DNA of 64,000 nt from Bacteroidales bacterium (GTDB lineage Bacteria > Bacteroidota > Bacteroidia > Bacteroidales > UBA10428), in assembly GCA_016928305.1 (NCBI GenBank), contig JAFGKY010000152.1, positions 266-64,265 on the forward strand, given 5' to 3'. The stretch's first letter is position 1. Every line of letters starts with the position of its first letter. Below are positions 18,842 to 53,722 of the stretch, one piece after another. A model generated the notes under the pieces. That model was not told where the DNA came from. It made no database searches and worked only from the letters and a program-made list of their open reading frames with translations. A program made the translations under genes and the position numbers.

Positions 18842-19357
18842 TTAATTTTTATATCCTAATTTTTGCAATACCTCATCGCTGATATCATACCTTGGATTTG
18901 TGTAAATAAGGGTCGGACCACTGGATGTATCGAAAATTGCCGCGTATCCGCTTTCGGTAGCCATATCCTTAATAGCTTTATAGATTTCATCCTGAATGGG
19001 TTGGATCAGTTCCTGCCGTTTTTTAAAGAGAGCCCCGTCTTGTCCGAAATAGCTTTTCTGTAACTCTTTGACTTCTTTTTCCTTATTGATAATAATTTCT
19101 TCCCTCTTTTTCCGCATATCTTCAGCCAGCAAAACCCTTTCAGCCTGATAATCCTTATACATATTTTCAATTTCGGCATATTTAGCCTCTATTTCTTTCT
19201 GCCAGTCCTGTGACACCTTATCCAGTTGATCCTTAGCCGCTTTATAGGCGGGTATGTTGTTCAAAATGTATTCGGTATCAACAAATGCATATTTCTGTGC
19301 CATCGTCATAAGGGTACCAATACATAAAATGGTGATTATCCATACTGTCTTTTTCAT
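18842..19357 (-). CDS. skp: OmpH/Skp-family periplasmic chaperone (second copy)
   Basis: The ATG at 19357 gives the signal peptide MKKTVWIITILCIGTLMTMAQ. The track start at 19420 adds 21 unlikely residues. Confidence 0.85.
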   Translation of the reverse strand: MKKTVWIITILCIGTLMTMAQKYAFVDTEYILNNIPAYKAAKDQLDKVSQDWQKEIEAKYAEIENMYKDYQAERVLLAEDMRKKREEIIINKEKEVKELQKSYFGQDGALFKKRQELIQPIQDEIYKAIKDMATESGYAAIFDTSSGPTLIYTNPRYDISDEVLQKLGYKN

Positions 19358-19450
19358 AATTCCTGGTTTTTTGAATGTTAATATATGATTTTGTCCGGAT
19401 ACCTTCAAATATAATACCAAAATACACTTTCAGGACGGTTATGCAAAAGA

Positions 19451-22126
19451 TTAAAAACTTTGTCCCATGATAAAATGGAATTCACTGCCATGGTGCAGAT
19501 CGCTTTCACCCGGTTGCTGGTCAAGGCCGTATCCCCAGTCAACACCAAGCATCCCAAACATAGGCAGGAATGCCCGCACTCCGACACCCACGGATCTTTT
19601 CATGACAAACGGATTAAATTCTTTAAAACTCTGCCAGCAGTTACCTCCGTCAAAAAAGACCATGCCGTATATGGTGGCTGATTGGTTCAGGGAAACGGGA
19701 TAGCGTAATTCAAGTGAGAATTTGGTATAGATATTTCCATTATCTATTCTATTGGATGTTTTGGGTGTGAGGGCTCCTTCCTCATAACCTCTCAGGGCAA
19801 TGATGTCGGCACCGTATAAGTTGTAACTGTACATACCGCTGCCACCGAGGCGGAATTTTTCAAACGGTGAAGTACCTATATTTGAATTAAAGAATCCCAG
19901 GTAGCCAAATTCAGCTTTCACGGCGAGTACCAGGTTTCCGATAAGACTTGTAAACCAGGCTCCGTTGAAAGTCCATTTATGGTATTCGATCCAGTTATAT
20001 TTTGCTGATTCTTCCTGTGCACTGATTGCAGCTTCTATGCCTGCGTTTGTGATCGCTGTATCTCCCTCCAGTATCTCCGTGCGAATAACGTTCTTTTCAG
20101 CATCAGAGAGCAACCAGAAATTATCCTGTTTAAAAAGCGAAAAAGGAGGTGTGATCTGAAGGCCCAGGGAAAAAACCGAGCCTTTTCTGGGGTATATCAT
20201 CTGATCCTGTGAACTGCGTGTAATGGTTGCCCTAAAGCTTAAAATATTGGAATAACCTGTACTGATAAAAAAATACGGCCAGTCATTCAGGTGGTAAAGC
20301 TGATAGCTCAGTTCGGTGGAAAGTATAAAATAATCATCAGGCCATTTCAGCCGTTTACCAAGTCCTATCGAGGCTCCGTATATTTTAAAAAAGTCGTCGG
20401 CTGTCTTTGCAGTCTGTGAAGTATAGTAGTTTTTTGTTATGGTATGGTAAAAGGAAACTGAGAAGTTGTTTGGTTTTTTACCTCCAAACCAGGGTTCCAT
20501 GAATGAGACATTGTATGCCTGATAATATTTCCCGTTTGATTGGGCCCGGATGGAAAGGGACTGTCCGTCTCCTGTAGGCACGGGGCGCCATTCGTCAAGA
20601 TTCAATATTTTGCGGATGGAAAAATTGGAAAAACGTATTCCCACCGTTCCGACAAATCCATATCCGCCCCAACCCCCGGATACTTCAAGCTGATCGTTGG
20701 CCCTTTCCTCGAGGTTATATTCAATATCAACAGTTCCGTCAGCCGGATTGGGAATGGGATTAGGACTGATATTTTCGGGATTGAAATGACCGAGCGTAGC
20801 CAGTTCTCTAACAGACCGGATGATGTCCGATTTACTGAATAATTCACCGGGTCGGGTACGAATTTCCCGTCGGACAACATGCTCATTGGTTTTTGTATTG
20901 CCTTTTATGATGACACGGTTAATAGTAGCCGGAGAACCTTCAGAGATCCTCATCTCCAGATTGATAGTTTTTATTTCCTGGGGAATGCTGTCTTTTGTAT
21001 GAAAAATAGAAAGATCGAAAAGGTTTTTAAACCAGTTATCCGATTTTGCAGCCATCATAATGGTATCACTGTCAATTTTAAGTTCTACCGGGTCAACCGA
21101 AAAGAATAAATAACCCTCATCCATATAAAGGGATGTGATGGCATCTTCATCTGAAAAAAGCCTTTCCTGTATCCTGTTCTGGTCATAGACATCGCCTTGT
21201 TTCATGCCCAGAATCCGGTCAAGAAATTCGGCCGGATATTTTGTGTTGCCTACCCATTGAATATTACCGACATAATATTTATCTCCTTCCATAAGTTTAA
21301 GCACCAGCGCTATTCTGTTATGGGAAGTAGGTATCAGCGATTCTTCAAGGATTTTCATATCGCGATATCCGTCTTCATTATAGAAATCAATCAGCTTGAT
21401 CTTATCCTCCTTGTAATCTTTTTCTGTGAATTTTGAGGGTTTGAAAAAATTCAGGTTCACCTGCTTGGTTTTTTTCATGACTCGTCTGAGCCGCTGATCT
21501 TTATATGCCTCATTTCCTTCAAATTCGATTTCGGATATTCTGACCTTATTTTTTTTATCCACATGGATATCCAGAAATACTTTATTGATAGCTCCGGTAT
21601 CGGCTTTCTGTATTACCGTAATGTTGCAATTCAAAAAACCTTTTTCGACATAATGTTTCCGGATGACTATTTTGGTGTTGTTGATAACATTATCGGTAAC
21701 CTGACTACCCGGTTTCAGTTTTATCAATTCTTCCAGGTCGGTGATCTCCGCTTTTTTAACACCATGTATGCGTGCTTTGGTTAGCCTTGCTTGTTCGGTA
21801 AGCTGTATTTCGAGGAATGCATTTTTACCTTCGGTTTTATTCAGCAGAATCTTAACATCGGAGAAAAGGCCGAAAGCCCAGAATTTGTCGATGGCCTTTA
21901 TAATGTCATCTCCCGGAATTAAGATTTCCTGGCCTATTGACAGGCCGGAAATATTCACAAGGTATGCAGGCTGAAGGTACTTAACACCGGAAATGCTTAT
22001 ATCAGCAATGATATATTCACGGGGATTATTGTAGTCAACAAAATCAATATCAGCGGGATCAGTGGTCTGGGAAAAGGATACAAGAAATGGGAAAAATGCA
22101 AATAATAAGGCCGCTTTTTTCATCAT
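19451..22126 (-). CDS. bamA: Outer membrane protein assembly factor BamA (Omp85 family)
   Basis: 891-aa ORF with a signal peptide, POTRA-repeat region and a C-terminal beta-barrel ending in aromatic ...MGQSF. It is in the conserved uppS-bamA-skp context. Confidence 0.92.
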   Translation of the reverse strand: MMKKAALLFAFFPFLVSFSQTTDPADIDFVDYNNPREYIIADISISGVKYLQPAYLVNISGLSIGQEILIPGDDIIKAIDKFWAFGLFSDVKILLNKTEGKNAFLEIQLTEQARLTKARIHGVKKAEITDLEELIKLKPGSQVTDNVINNTKIVIRKHYVEKGFLNCNITVIQKADTGAINKVFLDIHVDKKNKVRISEIEFEGNEAYKDQRLRRVMKKTKQVNLNFFKPSKFTEKDYKEDKIKLIDFYNEDGYRDMKILEESLIPTSHNRIALVLKLMEGDKYYVGNIQWVGNTKYPAEFLDRILGMKQGDVYDQNRIQERLFSDEDAITSLYMDEGYLFFSVDPVELKIDSDTIMMAAKSDNWFKNLFDLSIFHTKDSIPQEIKTINLEMRISEGSPATINRVIIKGNTKTNEHVVRREIRTRPGELFSKSDIIRSVRELATLGHFNPENISPNPIPNPADGTVDIEYNLEERANDQLEVSGGWGGYGFVGTVGIRFSNFSIRKILNLDEWRPVPTGDGQSLSIRAQSNGKYYQAYNVSFMEPWFGGKKPNNFSVSFYHTITKNYYTSQTAKTADDFFKIYGASIGLGKRLKWPDDYFILSTELSYQLYHLNDWPYFFISTGYSNILSFRATITRSSQDQMIYPRKGSVFSLGLQITPPFSLFKQDNFWLLSDAEKNVIRTEILEGDTAITNAGIEAAISAQEESAKYNWIEYHKWTFNGAWFTSLIGNLVLAVKAEFGYLGFFNSNIGTSPFEKFRLGGSGMYSYNLYGADIIALRGYEEGALTPKTSNRIDNGNIYTKFSLELRYPVSLNQSATIYGMVFFDGGNCWQSFKEFNPFVMKRSVGVGVRAFLPMFGMLGVDWGYGLDQQPGESDLHHGSEFHFIMGQSF

Positions 22127-41850: not shown

Positions 41851-43845
41851 ATGAAACAGAATGGTAATCAGGCCGGTAAATCACGTAAAAACGGCCATTC
41901 CCTGACACCGAAATTCGGCCCCGTCGACAATCTTGAAAGTTATTTACAGCCCGACTGGTGGAGAAGGATATTTAACTCAATGTATTTAAAAACTGACGCC
42001 GACGTGGTTGAAGATAAACAAATCACCAACCGTGAAATTGACCTCTTCACAGGATTTCTTAATCTGGATAAAACAATGGTAATCCTTGATCTGGCCTGCG
42101 GCCAGGGACGTCATACCCTGGAGCTGGCCCGTCGGGGATTCCGGTTTGTCAATGGCCTTGACCGTTCGCATTATCTCATCCGTAAGGCTAAAAATATATG
42201 TGCATCCGAGGGTCTTTCAGCAAGTTTTAAAGAAGGTGATGCCAGGAAACTTCCATACCAGCCTGACACATTTGATGTGGTCATGATATTGGGTAATAGC
42301 TTTGGGTATTTTGAAAGTCTTGATGACGACATTAAAATCCTGAAGGAGGTCTTTAGGGTTTTGAAACCCAATGGCCGGTTTTTAATTGATGTTGCCGATG
42401 GAAATTATCTCCGGAACAATTTCAGCCCGCGCAGCTGGGAATGGATAGATAACAAGCATTTCGTATGCCGTGAACGTTCCCTGGCTTCCGACAATCAACG
42501 GCTGATTTCACGTGAAGTGATTTCCAATATCAACAAGGGAGTGATTGTAGACCAGTTTTATGCAGAGCGTTTGTATTCCCGGGAATCGCTGGAGGAAATA
42601 CTCTCCAAAAGCGGTTATAAGGAGATCAGTTTTCTGGGCAGTTATTCCACTGAATCCAGGCGCAACCAGGATCTGGGTATGATGGAAAGAAGGATAATTG
42701 CCACGGCAACGGCACGCAAGGAATGGACACCTGTCAGGGCTAAAAAAGCGGGACTTAAAACGGTAGCCGTTGTTATGGGCGATCCTGAAAGACCGGATAT
42801 CATTAAGCCAAGCAACGTATTTGACAAAGACGATATAGAAACCGTCATGAATTTGAAGATTGCACTGGGAGAACTTAAGGAATATCGTTTCATTTACCAG
42901 TCGAACCATACTACTTTGTTTAATGACCTGCAAAAGCTGAGGGGCAAAGTTGACTTTGTATTTAATTTATGCGACGAAGGCTTCAATAACGATCCGAGAA
43001 AGGAACTTCATGTTCCGGCTATGCTGGAAGTCCTGAATATTCCTTACACAGGTTCCAATCCGCAATGCCTGACCTATTGCTATGACAAATCACTTATCCG
43101 TGGTATAGCAAAAGAAATGGGAGCCCCTGTAGCAGATGGGCTTTATATTAAGCCTGAAGATAATGTCTTCGAGATGAATATTGACTTTCCGGTTATCATC
43201 AAACCCAATTTTGGTGACAGCAGTTTTGCCATAACAAGGGAAAGTGTTGCCTATAACCTCGAAGGGCTTAATGATGCCATTATCAGGATTCGTGAAAAAG
43301 TTGGTTATGAAAAACCCATTTTGCTCGAAGAGTTTCTTACCGGAAAAGACCTGACGGTTGGCATAATTGGTAATCCTCCGGATCCATACACATTCCTGCC
43401 GATTGTGGAAGAGGATTATTCTGATCTGCCCCCTGATTTGCCCAGGATTTGCGGATATGAAGCCAAATGGATCGTTGATTCACCGTATTTCAGATTGCTG
43501 AAATCCGTGCCGGCTAACCTTCCCGAAGAAACCGAGAAGGTAATCATGGAGCATTGTCTAAGGTTGTTTGAAAGACTGGATTGCAAAGATTATGTTCGGT
43601 TTGACTGGCGCCTCGATCAAAATGGTGCACCTAAATTGCTCGAGGTGAATCCCAATCCCGGATGGTGCTGGGATGGTCATTTGGCCAAGATGGCTGCCAT
43701 TAAAGGCATATCGTATCCGGAGATGCTGCTGAACATATTGCAGACAGCAGAACAACGGATCAACAACGAAATGCAGGGGGTGAAAACCGATGAAAAAAAA
43801 ATAGTAGAGACATTGCATGCAACGTCTCCATATAATGTTATTTAG
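41851..43845 (+). CDS. Fusion protein: class I SAM-dependent methyltransferase (N) + D-Ala-D-Ala-ligase-like ATP-grasp (C)
   Basis: 664-aa ORF. The methyltransferase motif I is ILDLACGQGRHT and post-I is VNGLDRS. The C-terminal half has Ddl-like ATP-grasp motifs (PVIIKPNFGDSS, LLEEFLTGKDLTV, LLEVNPNPGW). Confidence 0.8.
   Translation: MKQNGNQAGKSRKNGHSLTPKFGPVDNLESYLQPDWWRRIFNSMYLKTDADVVEDKQITNREIDLFTGFLNLDKTMVILDLACGQGRHTLELARRGFRFVNGLDRSHYLIRKAKNICASEGLSASFKEGDARKLPYQPDTFDVVMILGNSFGYFESLDDDIKILKEVFRVLKPNGRFLIDVADGNYLRNNFSPRSWEWIDNKHFVCRERSLASDNQRLISREVISNINKGVIVDQFYAERLYSRESLEEILSKSGYKEISFLGSYSTESRRNQDLGMMERRIIATATARKEWTPVRAKKAGLKTVAVVMGDPERPDIIKPSNVFDKDDIETVMNLKIALGELKEYRFIYQSNHTTLFNDLQKLRGKVDFVFNLCDEGFNNDPRKELHVPAMLEVLNIPYTGSNPQCLTYCYDKSLIRGIAKEMGAPVADGLYIKPEDNVFEMNIDFPVIIKPNFGDSSFAITRESVAYNLEGLNDAIIRIREKVGYEKPILLEEFLTGKDLTVGIIGNPPDPYTFLPIVEEDYSDLPPDLPRICGYEAKWIVDSPYFRLLKSVPANLPEETEKVIMEHCLRLFERLDCKDYVRFDWRLDQNGAPKLLEVNPNPGWCWDGHLAKMAAIKGISYPEMLLNILQTAEQRINNEMQGVKTDEKKIVETLHATSPYNVI
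43807..43828. repeat. Second copy of the GCATGC-centred palindrome (GAGACATTGCATGCAACGTCTC)
   Basis: One mismatch from perfect symmetry and 21/22 identical to 38099-38120. It lies in the last 13 codons of the MT-ATP-grasp ORF and 10 nt from the convergent DHS-like stop. Confidence 0.9.
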
Positions 43846-44860
43846 AAAATAATTTATTCCATTCGCGTCCGGTCCGCTTTTCCCATACCCGGCTGTGATA
43901 TGCATAACCGGCTATGAGTGGCAATACCGTGGTTGCTTCAGCATATACCATCTGTTCATACTTGGTGTCCACTTTACCCCATGATGATGCTTCCTGTAAG
44001 GTGGATGATGAACAGGCTCCATCCCTGACATCGGCAACGGTTATTTGTACGGCATATTTGTGAACCGGAACAGGTTTCCCGAGTATTTCAGCGCAAACAA
44101 CTACATCCTGGGCGAAATTCTTCGGAACGCCACCCCCGATCATAAATAATCCTGTAGTGTTGGCAGCAATCTTAATCATGGTAAGTTCCCTGAAATCTCT
44201 TACAGAATCAATGGTGACATGCCTGTCCGGACTTTCCCACTGGTGTTTAACGAGACCGAATCCGGCACTGCTGTCTGAAAAGGCGGGACAAAAAATCGGT
44301 ACATTATTCTCATAGGCAGCCTGCACGAGTGAATCCTTTTTTATCGAGTTTTTTATGAGATACTTTCCGAGTTCCTGGATGAATTCACGTGAGCTGTATG
44401 GACGTGGTTTCAGCGAATCAGCCACCAGTTTTATTGTGCCATCACATACCTGTAGGTCATCCTCATCTATGTATGTGTCGTAAATACGATCAATATAAAA
44501 TTCTCTCAGTTTTTTGTCGGGTATTTCCAGGTTGCCTCTGTAATGTCTGAAGCCAAGGGCTTCAAAGAAATCCATGTCAATAATGGAAGCGCCGGTGGCG
44601 ACAATTGCATCGATCATACGGTTTTTTACCATGTCAACATATACCTGCATACATCCTCCTGCGCTTGTGCTGCCAGCCAGGGTGAGAATAATGGTACATT
44701 CCTTGTCATTTAACATCCTCAGGTAAATGTCAGCAGCATTGGCCGTATCACGCGATGAAAATGACATCTTTCGCATGGAGTCAATAACCGTGGTTGGATC
44801 GAACGCTTTAATATCAATGTGTTCAATCGGCTCTTTCAATAATTCACGTTTTGCAGTCAT
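43838..44860 (-). CDS. Deoxyhypusine synthase-like (DHS/homospermidine-synthase family) protein
   Basis: 340-aa ORF with motifs LAGSTSAGG and ATGASIIDMDFFEALG. The catalytic-Lys context EASSWGKV is present. Its 3' end overlaps the convergent gene by 8 nt. Confidence 0.88.
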   Translation of the reverse strand: MTAKRELLKEPIEHIDIKAFDPTTVIDSMRKMSFSSRDTANAADIYLRMLNDKECTIILTLAGSTSAGGCMQVYVDMVKNRMIDAIVATGASIIDMDFFEALGFRHYRGNLEIPDKKLREFYIDRIYDTYIDEDDLQVCDGTIKLVADSLKPRPYSSREFIQELGKYLIKNSIKKDSLVQAAYENNVPIFCPAFSDSSAGFGLVKHQWESPDRHVTIDSVRDFRELTMIKIAANTTGLFMIGGGVPKNFAQDVVVCAEILGKPVPVHKYAVQITVADVRDGACSSSTLQEASSWGKVDTKYEQMVYAEATTVLPLIAGYAYHSRVWEKRTGREWNKLFSK

Positions 44861-45392: not shown

Positions 45393-45534
45393 CCTTACCG
45401 CAAAAAAGTAATCCGGTAAAAGGACGGTATAAAAATGACAGGGATTTTAAAGGATGGATTTTTCGCATATATGATCTTCATTTCTTAAGAATAACTGGTA
45501 TTGTCGCCGGGGGAAATATACTCAAATAATAAAG

Positions 45535-45602
45535 ATGTGTGAATTATGTAACTATTTCCAATAGTTATGTAATACTGTAGTTAATATATTGCCATACATT
45601 CG
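45535..45602 (+). promoter_or_regulatory. Operator-promoter module A (direct repeats 9-12-9 + 21 nt + -7-like box) upstream of GH130-GT4
   Basis: ATGTGTGAATTATGTAAC-tatttccaatag-TTATGTAAT lies at 45535-45573. After 21 nt comes TACATTCG at 45595-45602. This is one of four copies in the window. Confidence 0.75.
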
Positions 45603-45759
45603 CAAAAATTGTTTACATACTTATTAATCGGCCTTCAGGTTTTTAACCGTTTTATGAAAATGTAAAACAGCATTAAGACAGAGCAGTCTATCATTTTTCT
45701 AAAGGGCCATAATGCTTCTCACTGTATATATCTTTTTACAATTATAAAGAAATTAAAAA

Positions 45760-46803
45760 ATGATAGAGGTTAAGAAAGAAGGTATAATATTAAAGAAAAC
45801 CCATTTTGAATTTGAAAACGAAGGTGTACTAAATCCCGCAGTAATGCGCGAAGGCGACAGCGTTCATCTTTTCTACCGGGCTGTGCGAAAAGGAAATCAT
45901 TCCAGTATTGGTTATTGCAGATTGGATGGGCCATTGACGGTTGCTGAACGGTGGAGTAAACCTTTCATGGTTCCTGAATTCGATTATGAATCACATGGTG
46001 TTGAAGATGCACGTATTGTAAAGATTGATGATCAGTTTTATATGACTTATACCGCTTATGATGGAACAAATGCCCGCGGAGCTTTAGCGACATCAAAAGA
46101 TTTAAAGCATTTTAAAAAGCAGGGGATGGTTGTTCCTCTCATCACGTATGCAGAATTTGTATTCCTTGCTGAATCTGCCGGTAGAGTAAATGAAAATTAT
46201 TACCGCAATCATAAGTTTTATTACCAGAAAGCAGATCCTGAAAAAAAAATAATGTTATGGGACAAAAATGTAGTTTTTTTCCCCCGAAAAATCAGTGGGA
46301 ATCTGGTATTCCTTCACCGGATCAGACCTGGCATTCAAATTGTTTCTGTAAACAGCATGCAGGAACTCACCAAAGAATATTGGGAAAAATATTTCCTCAA
46401 CCTGCAGGAACATATCGCCCTCGACCCTGTTTATCCGCACGAGTCATGCTACATTGGCAGTGGCTGTCCTCCAATTGAAACAGAACATGGATGGTTATTG
46501 ATTTATCACGGAGTGGAAGAAACCCACCATGGTATTGTTTATTCCGCCTGTGCTGCTTTACTTGACCTGGATGATCCTTCCAAAGAGCTGGCACGGCTTC
46601 CCCATGTATTGTTTTCACCGGAATATGAATGGGAATTGCATGGCGAGGTGAATAATGTAGTTTTTCCTACCGGTACCGCCCTGTTTGGGAATTCCTTATT
46701 TATTTATTATGGTGCGGCTGATACACATATTGCCTGCGCTTCGCTGAAATTATCGGAGCTGGTGGCCGAACTGTTAACTTATACTGCGAAAGATGAAAGA
46801 TGA
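45760..46803 (+). CDS. GH130-like glycosidase/phosphorylase family protein
   Basis: 347-aa ORF. The N-terminal pattern is FENEGVLNPAVMREGDSVHLFYRAV...IGYCRLDGPL and later motifs are EDARIVKIDDQFYMTYTAYDG and IYYGAADT, typical of the beta-propeller GH130-related family. Confidence 0.8.
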   Translation: MIEVKKEGIILKKTHFEFENEGVLNPAVMREGDSVHLFYRAVRKGNHSSIGYCRLDGPLTVAERWSKPFMVPEFDYESHGVEDARIVKIDDQFYMTYTAYDGTNARGALATSKDLKHFKKQGMVVPLITYAEFVFLAESAGRVNENYYRNHKFYYQKADPEKKIMLWDKNVVFFPRKISGNLVFLHRIRPGIQIVSVNSMQELTKEYWEKYFLNLQEHIALDPVYPHESCYIGSGCPPIETEHGWLLIYHGVEETHHGIVYSACAALLDLDDPSKELARLPHVLFSPEYEWELHGEVNNVVFPTGTALFGNSLFIYYGAADTHIACASLKLSELVAELLTYTAKDER

Positions 46804-49141
46804 AATCGTTTTAAATGAATTTGATTATAATATCGTGAATCAAATAGAATTGTCTGATATAAAAAGTTTAATTCATACAGGGATCATCCCTGAAATTAAA
46901 GGACAAAAACCGGACCGTGATAACACGAATGATCTTGCTGAAATTTTGTTTATTACTTCATATCCACCGCGGGAATGTGGCATAGCAACCTATTCTCATG
47001 ATTTGATTAAGGCGCTTAATAATAAATTCAGTAATTCATTATCCATAAAGGTTTGTGCATTGGAATCAGGAAATGCAAATTATGTCTATCCGAATGAAGT
47101 AAAATACATTCTCAATACCTCATTGGCTGCGGAATATGAAAAACTGGCATTAACTATAAATAAAGACAATCACATTAAAATCGTTTTAATCCAGCATGAA
47201 TTTGGCTTTTTCAACGCACAGGAACAGGCATTTATGCAATTTATATATATACTTTCAAAGCCGGTTGTTGTTGTTTTTCACACGGTACTGCCTCATCCTG
47301 ATGAAAAGTTGAAATCCAAAATAAAGAGTATTGCGGCTGTTTGCGGGTCAATCATCGTAATGACCCACAATTCGGCTAATATTTTAACGAATGAATATGA
47401 TTTGCCGCAACAAAAAATCTCAGTAATAGCCCACGGTACTCATTTGGTTCCCCATGTCAGTAAAAAATATTTGAAGATGAAATACGGACTAAAGGGCCGG
47501 AAAGTTCTTACTACATTTGGTCTGCTTAGTTCCGGAAAGAGCATAGAAACTACCCTTGAAGCATTACCTGCCATTGTTAAACTGATACCGGAAGTAATAT
47601 TTCTGATTATTGGCAAAACGCATCCCGAAATAAAAAAAGTAGAAGGAGAAGTGTACAGGGAAAGGTTGGAGCAAAAAGTTAAACACTTCACTCTTCAGGA
47701 TCATGTCATTTTTATTAATAACTATCTGCCATTACCGGATTTACTCGAATATTTGCAGCTTACCGATATTTACCTGTTTACCACCAACGATCCTAACCAG
47801 GCCGTAAGCGGCACTTTTGCTTATGCCATGAGTTGCGCCTGTCCTATCATTTCAACTCCCATTCCTCATGCAAGGGAAATACTGACTGAGGACACAGGAA
47901 TTATTTTTGATTTTCGAAACTCACAGCAATTATCGGATAGTGTTATCCGGTTACTCAACAATGAACCATTACGAAGGAATATTAGTTCAAATACGTTGCA
48001 GAAAATAGTTTCCACAGCCTGGGAAAATTCTGCCGCTGCACACGCCCTATTGTTCGAAAAAATGAGTGGAGGCAAAATTACAATACGCTATAATCTTCCA
48101 GCCATCAATCTGAACCATCTGAAACAAATGACGACCGGTACCGGGATCATTCAGTTTTCAAAAATCAATCAACCTGATATCGGTTCCGGTTATACCCTGG
48201 ATGATAATGCCAGGGCACTGATAGCCATGTGTATGTATTTTAAATTGACAGGTGATGAAAAGTGCGTTCATTACATCCGAAAATATCTCAGTTTTATAAA
48301 ACGATGCTTGCAGCCTGCCGGCGACTTTTTAAATTATGTAGATAAGGATAACAAATTTACCGGTCAAAACAAAGCCGTTAATTTGGATGACGCAAATGGA
48401 AGAGCTGTCTGGGCTTTAGGATATGCAGTATCATTAATGGGTCTGTTACCCTATGAAATTGTATCAGAGGCCATGACAAGCATTGAAAAATCCCTGCTTC
48501 GTATAGGTACAGTGCATTCTACAAGGGCTATGGCTTTCGCTATTAAAGGGATTTATTACTACTATAGCGCCATCAAGTCTCCTAAAAGTCTCATCCTTAT
48601 AAAAACATTCGCCGATCGTTTAGTTCAGATGTACAGGCATGAATCGAACAAAAAGTGGGAATGGTTTGAGAGTTATCTTACCTATGCCAACAGCATATTG
48701 CCTGAGGCCATGTTATATGCCTGGTTGATAACCGGAGATACCATTTATAAAGATATCGCCGGATCCTCGTTTAATTTTCTATTGTCTCAGACTTTTAATG
48801 AAAACGGGATTGAAGTAATTTCAAACAAAAACTGGCTGTTAAAGGGAAAAGAAGCAGAGCATTTTGGCGAACAACCCATAGATGTTGCATACACCATATT
48901 GGCATTAGGCACATTTTACGATGTATTTCAGATTGAAGATTATCGTGATAAGATGGAAATGGCGTTCAACTGGTTTTTAGGGAACAATCACTTGCATCAG
49001 ATTATTTATAACCCTTGTACTGGCGGATGTTACGACGGACTGGAGGAAACTCAGGTAAACCTCAATCAGGGAGCAGAGTCAACGGTAAGTTACCTGATGG
49101 CAAGATTAACCCTTGAACAGTATAAAGAGAGGTATCTTTAA
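46793..49141 (+). CDS. GT4-family glycosyltransferase fused to a ~380-aa C-terminal alpha/alpha-toroid-like domain
   Basis: 782-aa ORF that overlaps GH130 by 11 nt. The GT4 core covers roughly residues 50-420 (LLSSGKSIE..., ...SGTFAYAMSCACPIISTP). The C-terminal half has six-hairpin-like motifs (YTLDDNARAL, GRAVWALGY, NQGAESTVSYLMA). Confidence 0.8.
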   Translation: MKDEIVLNEFDYNIVNQIELSDIKSLIHTGIIPEIKGQKPDRDNTNDLAEILFITSYPPRECGIATYSHDLIKALNNKFSNSLSIKVCALESGNANYVYPNEVKYILNTSLAAEYEKLALTINKDNHIKIVLIQHEFGFFNAQEQAFMQFIYILSKPVVVVFHTVLPHPDEKLKSKIKSIAAVCGSIIVMTHNSANILTNEYDLPQQKISVIAHGTHLVPHVSKKYLKMKYGLKGRKVLTTFGLLSSGKSIETTLEALPAIVKLIPEVIFLIIGKTHPEIKKVEGEVYRERLEQKVKHFTLQDHVIFINNYLPLPDLLEYLQLTDIYLFTTNDPNQAVSGTFAYAMSCACPIISTPIPHAREILTEDTGIIFDFRNSQQLSDSVIRLLNNEPLRRNISSNTLQKIVSTAWENSAAAHALLFEKMSGGKITIRYNLPAINLNHLKQMTTGTGIIQFSKINQPDIGSGYTLDDNARALIAMCMYFKLTGDEKCVHYIRKYLSFIKRCLQPAGDFLNYVDKDNKFTGQNKAVNLDDANGRAVWALGYAVSLMGLLPYEIVSEAMTSIEKSLLRIGTVHSTRAMAFAIKGIYYYYSAIKSPKSLILIKTFADRLVQMYRHESNKKWEWFESYLTYANSILPEAMLYAWLITGDTIYKDIAGSSFNFLLSQTFNENGIEVISNKNWLLKGKEAEHFGEQPIDVAYTILALGTFYDVFQIEDYRDKMEMAFNWFLGNNHLHQIIYNPCTGGCYDGLEETQVNLNQGAESTVSYLMARLTLEQYKERYL

Positions 49142-49209
49142 TCCAGAAATTGATACCAAAAGGTTAATAAATCAATCATTATATAAAACTCGCATAAAAA
49201 TCAATTAAT

Positions 49210-49395
49210 ATGGAAATTAAATTTGATATCATTTATTGGAATGAACTTAAAAGCAAACTCAATGAGAAATACCCCGTATTAACAAATTCCGATTTGCTGT
49301 GGAGAAATGGTACAGAAGAAGATTTGTTAAGGATGATAGCGCTTAAGCTGAGAAAAACAAAGAAAGAACTGCAGGCAATAATTGAAAGTTTTTAA
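49210..49395 (+). CDS. Small CsbD-like stress protein (weak similarity)
   Basis: 61-aa ORF. The pattern W.ELK.KL.EKYP.LT.SDL....GTEEDLL..IA.KL.KTKKEL resembles the CsbD family layout. Confidence 0.4.
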   Translation: MEIKFDIIYWNELKSKLNEKYPVLTNSDLLWRNGTEEDLLRMIALKLRKTKKELQAIIESF

Positions 49396-49488
49396 CCGTC
49401 AATGAAGATTGTAGTCTTAGAAATAACCAATAATTTAATAAGTATTCAGTATATCGGATATTAAAGCTGATGTCTCAGTTTTAATATG

Positions 49489-49496
49489 TATCTTTG
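49489..49496 (+). promoter_or_regulatory. Bacteroidota -7 box TATCTTTG upstream of csp
   Basis: Exact TAnnTTTG match, 23 nt upstream of the ATG at 49519. It argues against the track start at 49486. Confidence 0.45.
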
Positions 49497-49518
49497 TAAA
49501 ATAATTAAATATCATATT

Positions 49519-49710
49519 ATGAATAACGGAACAGTAAAATTTTTTAATGACTCGAAAGGATTCGGATTTATTAAGGACGCAAATTCAGCGAAAGAGTATT
49601 TTGTACATTCCTCCGGATTACAGGAAAGTATCACGGAGAATGATGAAGTAACGTTCGATCTCGAACAAGGAAAAAAAGGTTTAAATGCAGTAAATGTTAA
49701 ACTAGCTTAG
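49519..49710 (+). CDS. Cold-shock domain protein (CspA family)
   Basis: 63 aa from the ATG at 49519, beginning MNNGTVKFFNDSKGFGFI (RNP1) with FVHSS (RNP2). Confidence 0.9.
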   Translation: MNNGTVKFFNDSKGFGFIKDANSAKEYFVHSSGLQESITENDEVTFDLEQGKKGLNAVNVKLA

Positions 49711-49740
49711 TTTATATATTATAAAACATTTAAAATTTCA

Positions 49741-49767
49741 AGCCTCATGTTAAGTGAGGCTTTTTTT
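49741..49767 (+). terminator. Rho-independent terminator after csp
   Basis: AGCCTCA...TGAGGCT stem (49741-49761) followed by a T7 run. Confidence 0.75.
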
Positions 49768-49819
49768 ATTAAAATCTATGACTGATTTGAAAATTAGGAT
49801 AACACCCAGGTATCAGAAA

Positions 49820-49887
49820 ATGTGTGAATGATGTAATTTTTTCCCAATCTTATGTAACAAACAGGCCGAATTAAGATAGTACATTTA
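49820..49887 (+). promoter_or_regulatory. Operator-promoter module B upstream of the DUF302 gene
   Basis: ATGTGTGAATGATGTAAT-tttttcccaatc-TTATGTAAC lies at 49820-49858. After 21 nt comes TACATTTA at 49880-49887. Confidence 0.75.
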
Positions 49888-50048
49888 TGTAGTTTATTCT
49901 CACGGTACAAATTAAATAATGTGCATTAATTTGACTTTTATCGGGGTGATGAATTTTTTTGATGAAAATTATATCCGGACAAAGATCCCGATCACTTTAT
50001 CCGGAATACCTTTAAGGAACAATTTTGGAAACGAAAAATAAGGGTGAA

Positions 50049-50474
50049 ATGATTTATTATATTAATACAAAACTCCATGCCAGTTTTGAACAAACCGTTC
50101 ATTTTGTCACGGAAGCATTGAAAGTTGAAGGCTTTGGGATTCTGACCGAGATAGATATGCACGAAAAACTGAAGGAAAAACTTGGTGTTGATTTCCGGAA
50201 ATACAAGATTCTGGGTGTGTGCAGCCCGCTTCATGCCTATAAAGCCCTTCAGAAAGATGATAAAATCGGGACCCTGTTACCCTGTAATATTATTATCCAG
50301 GAACTCGCCAGCAACGAGGTTGAAGTTGCCACAGCCGATCCGGTTGCATCCCTGTTGGCTGTCGAAGATTCAGCACTGGCTAACATGGCAAAAGAAATCC
50401 GGGAAAAATTAACCCGGATCATCAGGTCTCTAAAGGATAAAGGTCGTATTCGTTATAACACCTTGAACGGATAA
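50049..50474 (+). CDS. DUF302 domain protein
   Basis: 141 aa from the ATG at 50049 (the track uses the TTG at 50025). The DUF302-like pattern is FEQTVHFVTEALKVEGFGILTEIDMHEKLKEKLGVDFRKYKILGVCSP. Confidence 0.8.
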   Translation: MIYYINTKLHASFEQTVHFVTEALKVEGFGILTEIDMHEKLKEKLGVDFRKYKILGVCSPLHAYKALQKDDKIGTLLPCNIIIQELASNEVEVATADPVASLLAVEDSALANMAKEIREKLTRIIRSLKDKGRIRYNTLNG

Positions 50475-50639
50475 TCTCATGGATAGTAAATAAGATAATA
50501 ATTTCTTCGACTTCTTTAGACAAATCTGTAACTACCGTCATAAATTATACCAATATAATACTATTTTCAAAAAAAGAAAAATCCTTCTTTGATAGTCAAA
50601 ATAAAAATCAAGACACCAAAACTAAGTCGTCCTATATTT

Positions 50640-50750
50640 CTATCGGTTTTTTTCAGCCCGTTTGGCTGCTTTTGCTGCTCTTTTTTCTTTCAGGCTCTTT
50701 GTCGGAGCTTTTTTGTTCTTTTTTTCCCTTGCTTCTTTTTCTTTTACCAT
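50640..50750 (-). CDS. 36-aa highly basic micro-protein (not in ORF track)
   Basis: My own translation is MVKEKEAREKKNKKAPTKSLKEKRAAKAAKRAEKNR*. An exact TACTTTTG box lies 47 nt upstream. It competes with track ORFs 50653-50871(-) and 50589-50771(+), which look like frame artefacts of the same Lys-rich stretch. Confidence 0.35.
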   Translation of the reverse strand: MVKEKEAREKKNKKAPTKSLKEKRAAKAAKRAEKNR

Positions 50751-50797
50751 TTTTTAAATTTTTATGATTAATGAAATAAAGCTTTAAGTTTACCGGA

Positions 50798-50805
50798 CAA
50801 AAGTA
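50798..50805 (-). promoter_or_regulatory. Bacteroidota -7 box TACTTTTG
   Basis: Exact TAnnTTTG match on the minus strand upstream of the 36-aa ORF. Confidence 0.35.
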
Positions 50806-50945
50806 CACCATAACCCTTTTCATTAATCGTGTATAATTCTTCAAGTTATTAACAATATTGGATAGCTGCATTTTAACTTTAACTGTGGCATAATATGGGT
50901 ACAGGAATATGGATATTCTGTGTTCATATTGTTGCTAATGTTATT

Positions 50946-50971
50946 AAACAAAAACGCAGCCGTATGCTGCG
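50946..50971 (-). terminator. Rho-independent terminator candidate after the cupin gene
   Basis: CGCAGC (50955-50960) and GCTGCG (50966-50971) form the stem. TTTTTG follows on the minus strand. Confidence 0.5.
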
Positions 50972-51026
50972 CTTAAAATGCAAGTTTAAATCCTGTAATT
51001 TTCTAACAGGTGTTTTATTGCATTAA

Positions 51027-51377
51027 TTATATTATGCTTCCTTCATAACCACTTTTAATAATGGTTGAAATCATTTTAAACCGTTCATTGGCCTTAACAA
51101 TATTTGATGTATGAGCCGGTATTATTATTGCCTGTCCTGTTTGAAGCATATTCGATTTTTCATCAATCACGACTTCGGCTTTACCCTCAATAATTTGAAG
51201 ATAGGTGTCAAAAGGAGAAATCTTCTCTGCCAACGTTTCACCTGTATCAATGGCCACAATACAAATATTCCCGGTGGTTTTACGGATTATAGTTTTGGTT
51301 ACAACCGAATTAGCGACATACTCGATAATTTCAACCAGGGCATGCGTTTTAGATTTTTCAAATTCGTTAGTTTGCAT
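51027..51377 (-). CDS. Cupin domain protein
   Basis: 116-aa ORF with a small beta-barrel pattern (...DTYLQIIEGKAEVVIDEKSNMLQTGQAIIIPAHTSNIV). Confidence 0.75.
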   Translation of the reverse strand: MQTNEFEKSKTHALVEIIEYVANSVVTKTIIRKTTGNICIVAIDTGETLAEKISPFDTYLQIIEGKAEVVIDEKSNMLQTGQAIIIPAHTSNIVKANERFKMISTIIKSGYEGSII

Positions 51378-51402
51378 GTGTTTACTCTATGAGTATTTAC
51401 AT

Positions 51403-51470
51403 TAAAAGTACGTCAACGGATTTACGAAAGTGTTATACAATTGATAGTTTAATTTACATCATTCACACAT
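51403..51470 (-). promoter_or_regulatory. Operator-promoter module C upstream of the cupin gene
   Basis: On the minus strand ATGTGTGAATGATGTAAA-ttaaactatcaa-TTGTATAAC lies at 51470-51432. After 21 nt comes TACTTTTA at 51410-51403. The module starts 10 nt after the radical-SAM stop. Confidence 0.75.
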
Positions 51471-51479
51471 TTCACAACG

Positions 51480-52976
51480 CTAAGCGGTTTTTTTATTTCG
51501 CAAACCATAAACCATTTGATAATGGTAGCCATAAACTGTATAGGTTATAGCATCAACAATGGATCCGGGCCGGTTGAAAAGGGTCCATAGCAATAATTTC
51601 CAGTATTCACTTCTTCCTCTGTTCAGGAAGCCTATAATATAAACCGATTTAAAGAAAGCCCCCAGAAGTGAAAAGTTAATTTTGGTCTGCCTGTACTTAA
51701 ACCGGTTATAATTCAATAACAACTGGCGTATCCTTTTATAATAAGGCTTGGTTGCATAGATATTATGAATAATTTCTTTATACCCTTTTATAAGTTCACT
51801 TTGATTCATTTTGGGTATGAAATTCATGGAATAATCGGTGTTGTTTCCGGTGGCTTCGGTTGTCAGCCTGTTTTCTACTTCCAACCGTTTGTACAGCCTT
51901 GTATTTTTGGGCGCATTTAACAGTCCGACCATAGCCGATACAATTCCACTTTTTTGTATAAAATCAATTTGTCTTTGAAAAACACTTGGCGTATCACTAT
52001 CAAAACCCACAATAAAACCGCCTGACACATGCATTCCAGCCTTTTGTATTTTAATTACACTTTGTAACAGATCGCGGTTTACATTCTGGTTCTTATTGCA
52101 CTCATGAAGTGAATTTTCATCCGGTGTTTCTATGCCAACAAAGGTGGAGTTAAAACCGGCTTGCACCATCAGTGACATTAATTCCTCGTCGTCAGCCAGA
52201 TTAATGGAAGTTTCGGTATTAAAAACAAACGGGTACTGATGTGCCTGCATCCAATCTTTAATTACCGGGAGTAAACTATTCTTTATCACGTTTTTGTTTC
52301 CAATAAAATTATCGTCAACAATTAATACCGATCCACGCCAATTGAGCTTATACAGCTTTTCAAGCTCGTTTATTATTTGTTCCTTTTTCTTCATTCTGAC
52401 CTTATGCCCCAGCAGTGTTGTTATTTCACAAAAATCACAGGCATAAGGACATCCCCGCGAAACCTGGATATTCATAAAGGCATAGTCTTTCCTTGACAAC
52501 AAATGGTAATCCGGTATCGGGGTATGTGTAATATCAGCATATTCTGCAGTCTTATAAAGTTTTTGCGGATGACCTGCATGCAGATCATTTAAAAACTGAG
52601 GTAAGGTAATTTCAGCTTCATTCAGGACAAAATGATCAATTTGGGGATAGCTTTTATAGTCCTGGGTAAAAAGAGGCCCGCCGGCAACAATTTTCGTATT
52701 GTGTGTTTTACATTCATCAATGATTAAATTAACCGATTCTTTTTGTATGTACATGGCACTTATAAAGACATAATCGGCCCATTGGATGTCACTTGTACGA
52801 AGGGTTGCAACATTCAGATCCACCAGCTTTTTCTGCCACGTCGACGGGAGCATTGCCGATACAGTTATCAATCCTAAGGGTGGTACAGCTGCTTTTTTCG
52901 ATATAAACTTTAACACATGGCTATAACTCCAAAACGAATTTGGATAACGCGGATAAATTAACAGTATTTTCATCAT
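51480..52976 (-). CDS. B12-binding-domain radical SAM protein (DUF4070-type C-terminus)
   Basis: The ATG-ATG at 52976/52973 gives MMKILLIYPRYP. It has an N-terminal B12-binding-like Rossmann domain, the CxxxCxxC motif (CPYACDFC) and a C-terminal extension. The track TTG at 53012 is less likely. Confidence 0.85.
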   Translation of the reverse strand: MMKILLIYPRYPNSFWSYSHVLKFISKKAAVPPLGLITVSAMLPSTWQKKLVDLNVATLRTSDIQWADYVFISAMYIQKESVNLIIDECKTHNTKIVAGGPLFTQDYKSYPQIDHFVLNEAEITLPQFLNDLHAGHPQKLYKTAEYADITHTPIPDYHLLSRKDYAFMNIQVSRGCPYACDFCEITTLLGHKVRMKKKEQIINELEKLYKLNWRGSVLIVDDNFIGNKNVIKNSLLPVIKDWMQAHQYPFVFNTETSINLADDEELMSLMVQAGFNSTFVGIETPDENSLHECNKNQNVNRDLLQSVIKIQKAGMHVSGGFIVGFDSDTPSVFQRQIDFIQKSGIVSAMVGLLNAPKNTRLYKRLEVENRLTTEATGNNTDYSMNFIPKMNQSELIKGYKEIIHNIYATKPYYKRIRQLLLNYNRFKYRQTKINFSLLGAFFKSVYIIGFLNRGRSEYWKLLLWTLFNRPGSIVDAITYTVYGYHYQMVYGLRNKKTA

Positions 52977-53068
52977 TACTTTTATAATTGGCGATCCGCT
53001 TATATATGGCAAGTAAGGTCAGCAGATGAATAACAATGCCGGTTATTAATTTTATAATAGTTGGAATA

Positions 53069-53136
53069 CAAAAATAATGAGACAAAGCAACCGGATTATT
53101 ACATAATTTCAGGAAAAGCTTACATAATTCACACAT
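53069..53136 (-). promoter_or_regulatory. Operator-promoter module D upstream of the radical SAM gene, overlapping the AraC stop codon
   Basis: On the minus strand ATGTGTGAATTATGTAAG-cttttcctgaaa-TTATGTAAT lies at 53136-53098. After 21 nt comes the exact TATTTTTG box at 53076-53069. The regulator's TGA stop is the TGA inside ATGTGTGAA. Confidence 0.8.
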
Positions 53137-53668
53137 TTTCCAGTGTACCCCGCCGCTTATTTTTGAGTTTTTTAAAGTATGAAGGGGTTAACCCGGTAAA
53201 TTTTTTAAATTGATTTGACAAATGGGCTACACTGCTATAATGCAATTTATATGCTATTTCGGTGAGATTAAGTTCATCGTATACCAGCAGCTCTTTTACT
53301 TTTTCTATTTTATGTGTAAGATAAAATTTTTCGATTGTAATCCCTTTAACCTCCGAAAAAAGATTGGCCAGATAAGTATAATCGTAGTTGAGTTTTTCAC
53401 TCAGGTAGTCCGAAAGGTTCACCCTGATTTGCTCTTCTGTATAGTGTACCAGTTCGATAATAGCACTTTTAATTTTCTCAACCAGAATACTTCTTTTATT
53501 ATCCATCAGAAGAAGTCCTGATGTTTTTAAAGCGATATCCAACTGCTTCACTTGTTCCGGTGAGATATCTTCAATGATATCCGCCTCTCCGATTTTTACA
53601 TCAACATAACGGATACCAAGTTTTTCCAGCTCGGATTTTACTACCATCTGGCAACGGATACAGACCAT
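53129..53668 (-). CDS. AraC-family transcriptional regulator with N-terminal HMA-like (CxxC) domain
   Basis: The ATG at 53668 gives MVCIRCQMVVKSELEKLGI..., a ferredoxin-like HMA pattern with CIRC. The C-terminal AraC HTH reads LTEIAYKLHYSSVAHLSNQFKKFTGLTPSYF. The track start at 53752 adds 28 unlikely residues. Confidence 0.8.
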   Translation of the reverse strand: MVCIRCQMVVKSELEKLGIRYVDVKIGEADIIEDISPEQVKQLDIALKTSGLLLMDNKRSILVEKIKSAIIELVHYTEEQIRVNLSDYLSEKLNYDYTYLANLFSEVKGITIEKFYLTHKIEKVKELLVYDELNLTEIAYKLHYSSVAHLSNQFKKFTGLTPSYFKKLKNKRRGTLENV

Positions 53669-53722
53669 ATTTTGGATGTAGAGTTTCACGAGATATAAAT
53701 AGCAAATTAGATTTGAAATACT

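Follow-up and report, generated by a model that had tools for sequence, protein, structure and literature searches.

A 64,000-nt stretch of a Bacteroidales genome (UBA10428 lineage; contig JAFGKY010000152.1, positions 266 to 64,265; hereafter the window) carried four copies of a tandem-repeat operator, designated A to D, each set at a fixed distance upstream of a promoter -7 box and each facing a gene (Table 1). On the evidence of sequence comparisons, we consider it probable that these four sites are bound by an AraC-family protein whose gene runs into operator D, here called HMA-AraC for its HMA-like N-terminal domain and its AraC-type DNA-binding domain, and that this protein would activate from a position that overlaps the -35 region. 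A first-pass annotation of the window had proposed a compact local regulon. This proved too narrow, as both operator and regulator were found phylum-wide in Bacteroidota, with operators ahead of dozens of unlinked gene families; the window, with four promoters next to the regulator gene within 7.6 kb, is one clustered part of a far larger predicted regulon.

A tandem operator in place of the -33 element

Direct reading of the window, together with a scan using a position weight matrix (PWM) trained on 150 sites that all came from other genomes, recovered the four sites at the positions and on the strands where the first-pass annotation had placed them. PWM scores were 56.3 for operator A, 51.1 for B, 55.3 for C and 53.4 for D; all remaining positions in the 64 kb scored below 12, and shuffled sequences below 0. 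The annotation had allowed that copies might have been missed by eye, but as nothing else scored 12 or more, none was overlooked. The 17-mer ATGTGTGAATKATGTAA occurred four times without mismatch, and allowing up to three mismatches added one further match in the window, which was unrelated; none of 100 dinucleotide shuffles gave five matches. Within this 17-mer, operator A was identical to D and B to C. Recent duplication was rejected as an explanation, and the identities carry no extra meaning, because across the phylum a single position of the 17 (K) varied, the other 16 being nearly invariant. Rfam gave no RNA family for the window region, nor for six related loci.

Operator architecture was read from two alignments, one of 150 sites out of 120 motif-selected genome loci and the other of 161 sites sampled independently, starting from the protein; both PWM-based samples are biased to the pattern from which the matrix was built, with a score threshold of 25 that still allows several mismatches. 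The operator consists of a tandem 15-bp unit, TGTGAAT-n-ATGTAAC, with 21-bp phasing, the promoter-proximal unit reading ....AAT-T-RTGTAAC with a degenerate distal half. The repeat unit had been annotated as 9 nt long, for which 15 nt is the better description (TGTGAATnATGTAAC versus ....AAT-TRTGTAAC). Outside the search pattern, conservation in the 150 sites extended to AAtG ahead of TGTGAAT, the C following ATGTAA, a T-rich spacer, AA ahead of the second repeat and C-A behind it, and the flanks beyond the motif and -7 box had an information content of approximately zero.

A tAcyTTTG box stood at a single rigid offset, 57-64 from the start of TGTGAAT, in both samples, and was conserved at A58, T61 (146/150 sites) and T62 (145/150 sites). 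This consensus agrees with the Bacteroidetes sigma-A -7 box, and in operators A to D alike a TAnnTTTG-like box lay exactly 21 nt past the proximal repeat, so the fixed spacing reported by the annotation holds for every window site. In flavobacteria, the TAnnTTTG box of sigma-A promoters occupies -12 to -5 (PMC9723704), and the predicted +1 is therefore offset 69, with the operator at about -73 to -33 and the proximal TGTAAC at about -39 to -34. A -33 TTTG, expected 19-21 nt upstream of the -7 box, was absent from the 150- and 161-site samples: offsets 33-40 read AAC-A-n-T-T-n, with a G at offset 40 in 16/161 sites. The canonical element is missing because the operator takes up its place, and its absence suggests that these promoters are activator-dependent. 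Direct repeats with the proximal unit ending 21 nt before the -7 box, found here in more than 300 sites, form an AraC/XylS-type layout at the sequence level, and the geometry of both samples lends support to the AraC-type, activator-dependent arrangement that the annotation had suggested.

Every window copy faces a gene, and the GH130-GT4, DUF302, cupin and B12-radical-SAM assignments made in the first pass were upheld. The same orientation was borne out in the wider collection, where a co-directional open reading frame (ORF) started 72-330 nt downstream of 319/364 sites with sequence on both sides, compared with 123/364 when mirrored. The modal ATG lay approximately 100-105 nt from the TGTGAAT start, giving a 5' untranslated region (UTR) of approximately 30-35 nt. 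Back-to-back operators on opposite strands, 40-180 nt apart, were frequent (loci L023, L034, L127, L151, L153, L188 and L192) and form divergent, putatively activator-dependent promoter pairs.

Scanning one genome per prokaryotic species with the exact 36-bp pattern TGTGAAT-N-ATGTAA-N13-TTRTRTAA returned at least 120 loci, almost all of them from Bacteroidota, against an estimated one chance match or so in the scanned collection, assuming uniform base composition. Among the matches listed were Bacteroidales including Prolixibacteraceae, Marinilabiliaceae, Lentimicrobiaceae and Paludibacter, and, from other orders, Chitinophagales, Saprospirales, Cytophagales and a few Flavobacteriales. Sites were found ahead of homologous genes across these orders, in line with the conservation at orthologous loci that the annotation's proposal implied. 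One 3.7-kb motif contig (L118, JBAZOY010000146.1) was labelled Syntrophales and is probably mis-binned; all other labelled matches were from Bacteroidota or the FCB group.

The HMA-AraC protein as candidate regulator

Operator and regulator were associated in both directions. Starting from the motif, every ORF no shorter than 90 aa was clustered over the 120 motif-selected loci of 8 kb. HMA-AraC was the top family: clustering placed it in 22/120 loci and tblastn in 23 (47-89% identity), and it was alone among DNA-binding and transcription-factor families in standing near the top of this ranking. Starting from the protein, a metagenome scan with the family alignment yielded 80 loci picked only for a homologue (62-89% identity), and in 72 of them one or more sites scored at or above 25. 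These loci held 161 sites in 631 kb, compared with 0 in the same loci after shuffling, even at a score of 10, and site density was highest within 1 kb of the regulator gene. The operator overlapped the regulator stop codon in 39/80 loci, in both Bacteroidales and Chitinophagales, as it does in the window, where the last codons GAA AAT GTG TGA place the stop within the TGTGAAT of operator D. Sixteen sites sat ahead of a member of the HMA-AraC family itself, and the sequences suggest autoregulation, particularly in a second subfamily (MVSNRC...PIEEIGN). The first-pass annotation had put forward the protein at 53129-53668 as the binder, and its two-way association with the sites makes it the best candidate.

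An ATG at 53668, the start used in that annotation, gives 179 aa, whereas a GTG at 53689 gives MKLYIQNMVCIRC... and 186 aa. The latter is most likely the true start, because most homologues (mostly 186-190 aa) align from their own residue 8; the extra residues (53669-53689, minus strand) supply strand beta1 of the HMA-like domain. The C-terminal ~100 aa form an AraC/XylS double helix-turn-helix (HTH) domain (HTH_18, 3e-16; HTH_AraC, 6e-11), and Foldseek matches of the model included the DNA-binding domains of YesN, AraT, MarA, SoxS, Rob and AraC. The N-terminal ~65 aa had no match in Pfam, including the Pfam HMA model, or in NCBIfam. A profile of 31 diverse family members nevertheless matched ATP7B (1e-6) and CopZ (3e-4) in the PDB, with NMVCxRC aligned on the GMTCxxC metal loop and the alignment covering the whole beta-alpha-beta-beta-alpha-beta HMA domain. 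In the AlphaFold model this region comprised two strands between two helices, which fits an HMA-like fold, and the model matched the CopA metal-binding domain 3fry with a root-mean-square deviation of 1.9 A over 52 columns.

Across 36 diverse members, only Met8 and Cys13 were invariant in the HMA-like site, position 10 being Cys, Ser, Gly, Asn or Glu. The two Cys residues of the HMA domain were therefore not both conserved family-wide; the window protein has both, and the classical two-Cys metal site is confined to one subfamily that includes it. A signal is probably sensed via the HMA-like domain, through the invariant Met and Cys and, in this subfamily, the CxxC, as metal or as thiol/redox state. 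In the same 36 members, several positions of both HTH regions were invariant or nearly so, matching the near-invariant operator. The family comprised 488 clusters (50% identity) at E < 1e-30; its database names were generic only, such as "AraC family transcriptional regulator", and cluster look-ups gave no lead to characterised homologues.

From these patterns we infer binding by this protein and activation rather than repression, and we propose a mechanism in which two protomers would sit head-to-tail on the two 15-bp units phased by 21 bp. In each unit, one HTH would read TGTGAAT (the degenerate ..AAT proximally) and the other ATGTAAC. The proximal protomer, at -39 to -34, would stand in for the missing -33 TTTG contact, and the bound regulator would most likely recruit sigma-A polymerase, as AraC does at araI2; recruitment is proposed because promoters without a -33 element keep their -7 box at a rigid distance. 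Transcription of the GH130-GT4, DUF302, cupin and B12-radical-SAM units would then start near the four positions predicted in Table 1.

Several points weigh against this assignment. By PWM scan, no site stands in front of the AraC gene of the window. The 116-aa cupin was linked to sites about as tightly as the AraC gene, and co-localisation cannot fully separate a regulator from the best-conserved target of another regulator. Confidence in the AlphaFold model was moderate (pLDDT 71), and the first Cys of CxxC is not kept in the second subfamily (SxRC), which means that a classical HMA metal site is not universal.

Foremost among the alternatives, though in our view unlikely, is that a different factor binds, for instance an unlinked master regulator or a response regulator of the LytTR type, with the HMA-AraC gene as a conserved target. 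The 16 sites ahead of AraC-family genes mean that the family is certainly a target, the tight linkage of the cupin is compatible with such a factor, two 9-bp direct repeats with a 12-bp spacer are the textbook layout for LytTR regulators such as AgrA and ComE, and a LytTR gene lies near a radical-SAM gene in Maribellus comscasis. However, tblastn with a LytTR protein found homologues in just 3/204 loci, on which grounds LytTR was rejected as the binder, and neither LytTR nor any other DNA-binding family was enriched among the ORFs of the motif-selected loci. The 15-bp unit, whose two sub-elements are spaced by about a helical turn, suits a double-HTH AraC protein better than LytTR, and the stop-codon overlap couples the operator to the HMA-AraC gene in several orders. 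The first-pass annotation had left the choice between AraC/XylS- and LytTR-type activators; the former is favoured and the latter is not supported.

We give less weight still to a scenario in which HMA-AraC binds but represses or roadblocks promoters that are constitutive without it. Some AraC-family proteins do repress, and a protein bound at site D, where the regulator's own gene ends, could block read-through. As a rule, repressor sites overlap with the -7 box or +1 and their spacing may vary, whereas here the operator is wholly upstream of the -7 box and, in more than 300 promoters, replaces the -33 element with rigid spacing, the signature of activator dependence. It is highly improbable that the proximal TGTAAC is instead the -35 element of an extracytoplasmic function (ECF)-type alternative sigma factor, although it resembles ECF -35 elements such as that of B. 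subtilis SigX and one site lies ahead of an ECF sigma gene. This was rejected because the conserved downstream element is a sigma-A-type TAnnTTTG 21 nt away and not a CGT -10 at 16-17 nt, none being conserved at offsets 50-56 in the 150- or 161-site samples; it would also leave the second TGTAAC and the upstream TGTGAAT unexplained. Lastly, the annotation had considered that the sites might be repetitive extragenic palindrome or miniature inverted-repeat transposable element (REP/MITE) copies without a regulatory role, and although near-identical 17-mers, four in 7.6 kb, would fit this, it is effectively refuted by unconserved flanks, only four copies in 64 kb, the orientation bias and the conservation across orders ahead of homologous genes, and merits almost no credence.

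Predicted regulon and comparison with known systems

With HMA-AraC as the preferred regulator, its predicted regulon was summarised from mechanical calls of the first downstream ORF at 279 sites pooled from both samples. The 116-aa cupin was the commonest (37 sites, 14 of them directly after the regulator's stop codon), followed by CsbD (19 sites; E = 5e-14), the regulator itself (16 sites), ice-binding-like proteins with a type IX secretion system (T9SS) sorting tail (13 sites), a small secreted/membrane protein family without a Pfam match (12 sites), OmpA with glycine-zipper lipoproteins (11 sites), small secreted/membrane proteins of DUF5670 (10 sites), a 61-aa membrane protein (7 sites), B12-radical-SAM (6 sites), and DUF6600 and YtxH (5 sites each). 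Represented downstream by single or few cases were a triple-BON protein, a Dps-like ferritin, an ECF sigma factor, an M48 lipoprotein peptidase and a bestrophin-like channel, while a fatty-acid desaturase, Band_7 proteins, response-regulator receivers and a cold-shock protein were encoded at or near sites, as judged from sequence or neighbour annotation. In L121, a relative whose regulator is 92% identical, sites lay ahead of radical-SAM, cupin and small membrane protein genes, and another preceded a 151-aa gene that shares its strand with DUF302 and lies immediately upstream of it. Sites in Maribellus comscasis (CP046401) preceded a Band_7 pair, the gene of an 88-aa protein and a small protein gene upstream of a same-strand cold-shock gene.

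By analogy, this gene content resembles general stress regulons of the RpoS/SigB kind, with a cold and osmotic flavour. Content shared with the regulons of RpoS (E. coli), SigB (Bacillus) and EcfG-PhyR (Alphaproteobacteria) includes CsbD, YtxH, BON/OsmY-like proteins, Dps, OmpA/glycine-zipper lipoproteins and small membrane proteins. The likeness is one of gene content alone; control here would lie with a putative sigma-A-dependent AraC-type activator and no alternative sigma factor. How general protection genes are switched on in Bacteroidota is poorly understood; we know of no RpoS or SigB in this phylum and of no equivalent general stress regulator. The site and regulator pair is a candidate stress-response switch. 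A bolder reading, which we offer as possible rather than probable, is that HMA-AraC and its tandem operator act as a master switch of the general stress, dormancy or cold-osmotic response in most free-living Bacteroidota, in which a sigma-A-dependent activator would sense metal or thiol redox through its HMA-like Met/Cys site, possibly with the cupin as a partner. If true, the pair would do in Bacteroidota what RpoS, SigB or EcfG do elsewhere. The operator model and predicted regulon can be scanned for in any Bacteroidota genome and give many proteins of unknown function a common regulatory context, and the operator with its promoter would provide a compact, probably inducible module for engineering environmental Bacteroidota.

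Among the closest parallels was AraC at araI1-araI2 of E. coli araBAD, where a double-HTH protein binds two direct-repeat half-sites with the same 21-bp phasing, roughly -70 to -35, with the weaker proximal half-site over the -35-equivalent region of promoters that lack a good upstream element. In the AraC system araI1 is the strong and araI2 the weak half-site. In contrast to AraC, with its cupin sugar-binding and dimerisation domain, the putative sensor here is an HMA-like ferredoxin fold of ~65 aa; the promoter is of the Bacteroidetes -33/-7 type, the regulon comprises dozens of stress-type genes across a phylum and not one catabolic operon, and no looping site like O2 was seen. MarA, SoxS and Rob are small AraC-family activators of dispersed stress regulons, as HMA-AraC would be, with a matching DNA-binding fold and asymmetric 20-bp boxes at fixed promoter positions. 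However, MarA and SoxS bind a single box as monomers and have no sensor domain, compared with two tandem units and an HMA-like sensor here, and the operator sequence of the MarA/SoxS/Rob group is unrelated. LytTR regulators (AgrA, ComE, AlgR) share the placing of 9-bp direct repeats, 12 bp apart, immediately ahead of the promoter, but the real repeat unit here is 15 bp and no LytTR gene is associated (3/204 loci).

With HMA-domain metal chaperones and sensors (CopZ, the ATP7B metal-binding domains, MerP), the N-terminal profile aligned along the full length of the domain, with CxxC on the metal-binding loop; HMA-AraC, by contrast, joins this domain to a DNA-binding one, and in many members the first Cys is replaced (by Ser, Gly, Asn or Glu). 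From AraC at araI and the MarA/SoxS/Rob regulons, whose mode of action it would share, the system differs in three respects: the HMA-like sensor, the phylum-wide operator and regulon, and an operator embedded in the regulator's own stop codon. No literature on this regulator or operator was found among open-access papers, so this absence is no proof.

A 16-nt palindrome, GTGAAAAT-nn-ATTCAC, started exactly at the predicted +1 (offset 69) in 21/154 motif promoters, with ~1.3 expected. It occurred in related loci (e.g. L034:304-319, L074, L115 and L120) and not in the window. Its half-site is like the distal TGTGAAT, its outer pair is G-C, A-T or G-T, and where the downstream gene was noted it encoded CsbD, an ice-binding protein or a small secreted protein. 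The palindrome could serve as operator for another factor or, in the RNA, form a hairpin at the 5' terminus. Just after it, the 5' UTRs of L004, L048, L071, L085 and L095 carried a short conserved hairpin, ..ACTGTgCCGCCAGAnGCGGaAAA.., which had no Rfam match; the genes concerned included those of His-rich small proteins and CsbD.

Predicted target genes of the four operators

Table 1. Operators, predicted promoters, candidate regulator and target genes in the window.
Feature	Position	Strand	Description
Operator A	45534..45574	+	AGATG-TGTGAAT-t-ATGTAAC-N11-..AG-TTATGTAAT; predicted ~ -73 to -33 of promoter A
-7 box, promoter A	45595-45602	+	TACATTCG; predicted transcription start ~45607, drives GH130 + GT4
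Target operon A	45760..49141	+	GH130 (45760-46803) and 782-aa GT4 glycosyltransferase (46793-49141)
Operator B	49819..49859	+	
-7 box, promoter B	49880-49887	+	TACATTTA; predicted transcription start ~49892
Target B	50025..50474	+	DUF302 protein; start TTG 50025 or ATG 50049
Target C	51027..51377	-	116-aa cupin; commonest operator target across genomes
-7 box, promoter C	51410-51403	-	TACTTTTA; predicted transcription start ~51398
Operator C	51431..51471	-	Within the 102-nt gap between radical-SAM and cupin genes
Target D	51480..53012	-	B12-binding radical-SAM protein with DUF4070; likely ATG 52976, 498 aa
-7 box, promoter D	53076-53069	-	TATTTTTG; predicted transcription start ~53064
Operator D	53097..53137	-	Regulator TGA stop codon (53131-53129) inside distal TGTGAAT
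Candidate regulator	53129..53689	-	186 aa; N-terminal HMA-like domain (NMVCIRC), C-terminal AraC double-HTH

The 116-aa cupin was also the gene most often found directly after the regulator, and instead of being simply a target it may work with the regulator as a partner. Its cupin motif 1 is without the HxH, and the function of its nearest solved relatives (3rns, 1yhf and 2ozj) is not known. A weak likeness to AraC ligand-binding domains (4/14 members, E = 4.5e-4) reflected generic cupin similarity and is not taken as a sign of a split sensor. The B12-radical-SAM family was found downstream of a site also in L013, L077, L088 and L092.

Just upstream of operator A lies an unusual gene pair (41851-44860) that carries no operator: one gene encodes a 664-aa protein in which a SAM-methyltransferase is fused to a D-Ala-D-Ala-ligase-like ATP-grasp domain, and it has an 8-nt opposite-strand overlap with a deoxyhypusine-synthase-like gene. 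Among the genes of operon A itself, GT4 was found in 7 and GH130 in 6 of the motif-selected loci, and the C-terminal 360 aa of the 750-780-aa GT4 protein had no Pfam match. In Maribellus comscasis (L123:13279-15525 and 19220-20392), the GT4 gene was situated near a GH100 (neutral invertase-like) gene, a cold-shock gene, Band_7 genes and a Na+/H+ exchanger, a neighbourhood that hints at the synthesis of a compatible solute, possibly sucrose-like.

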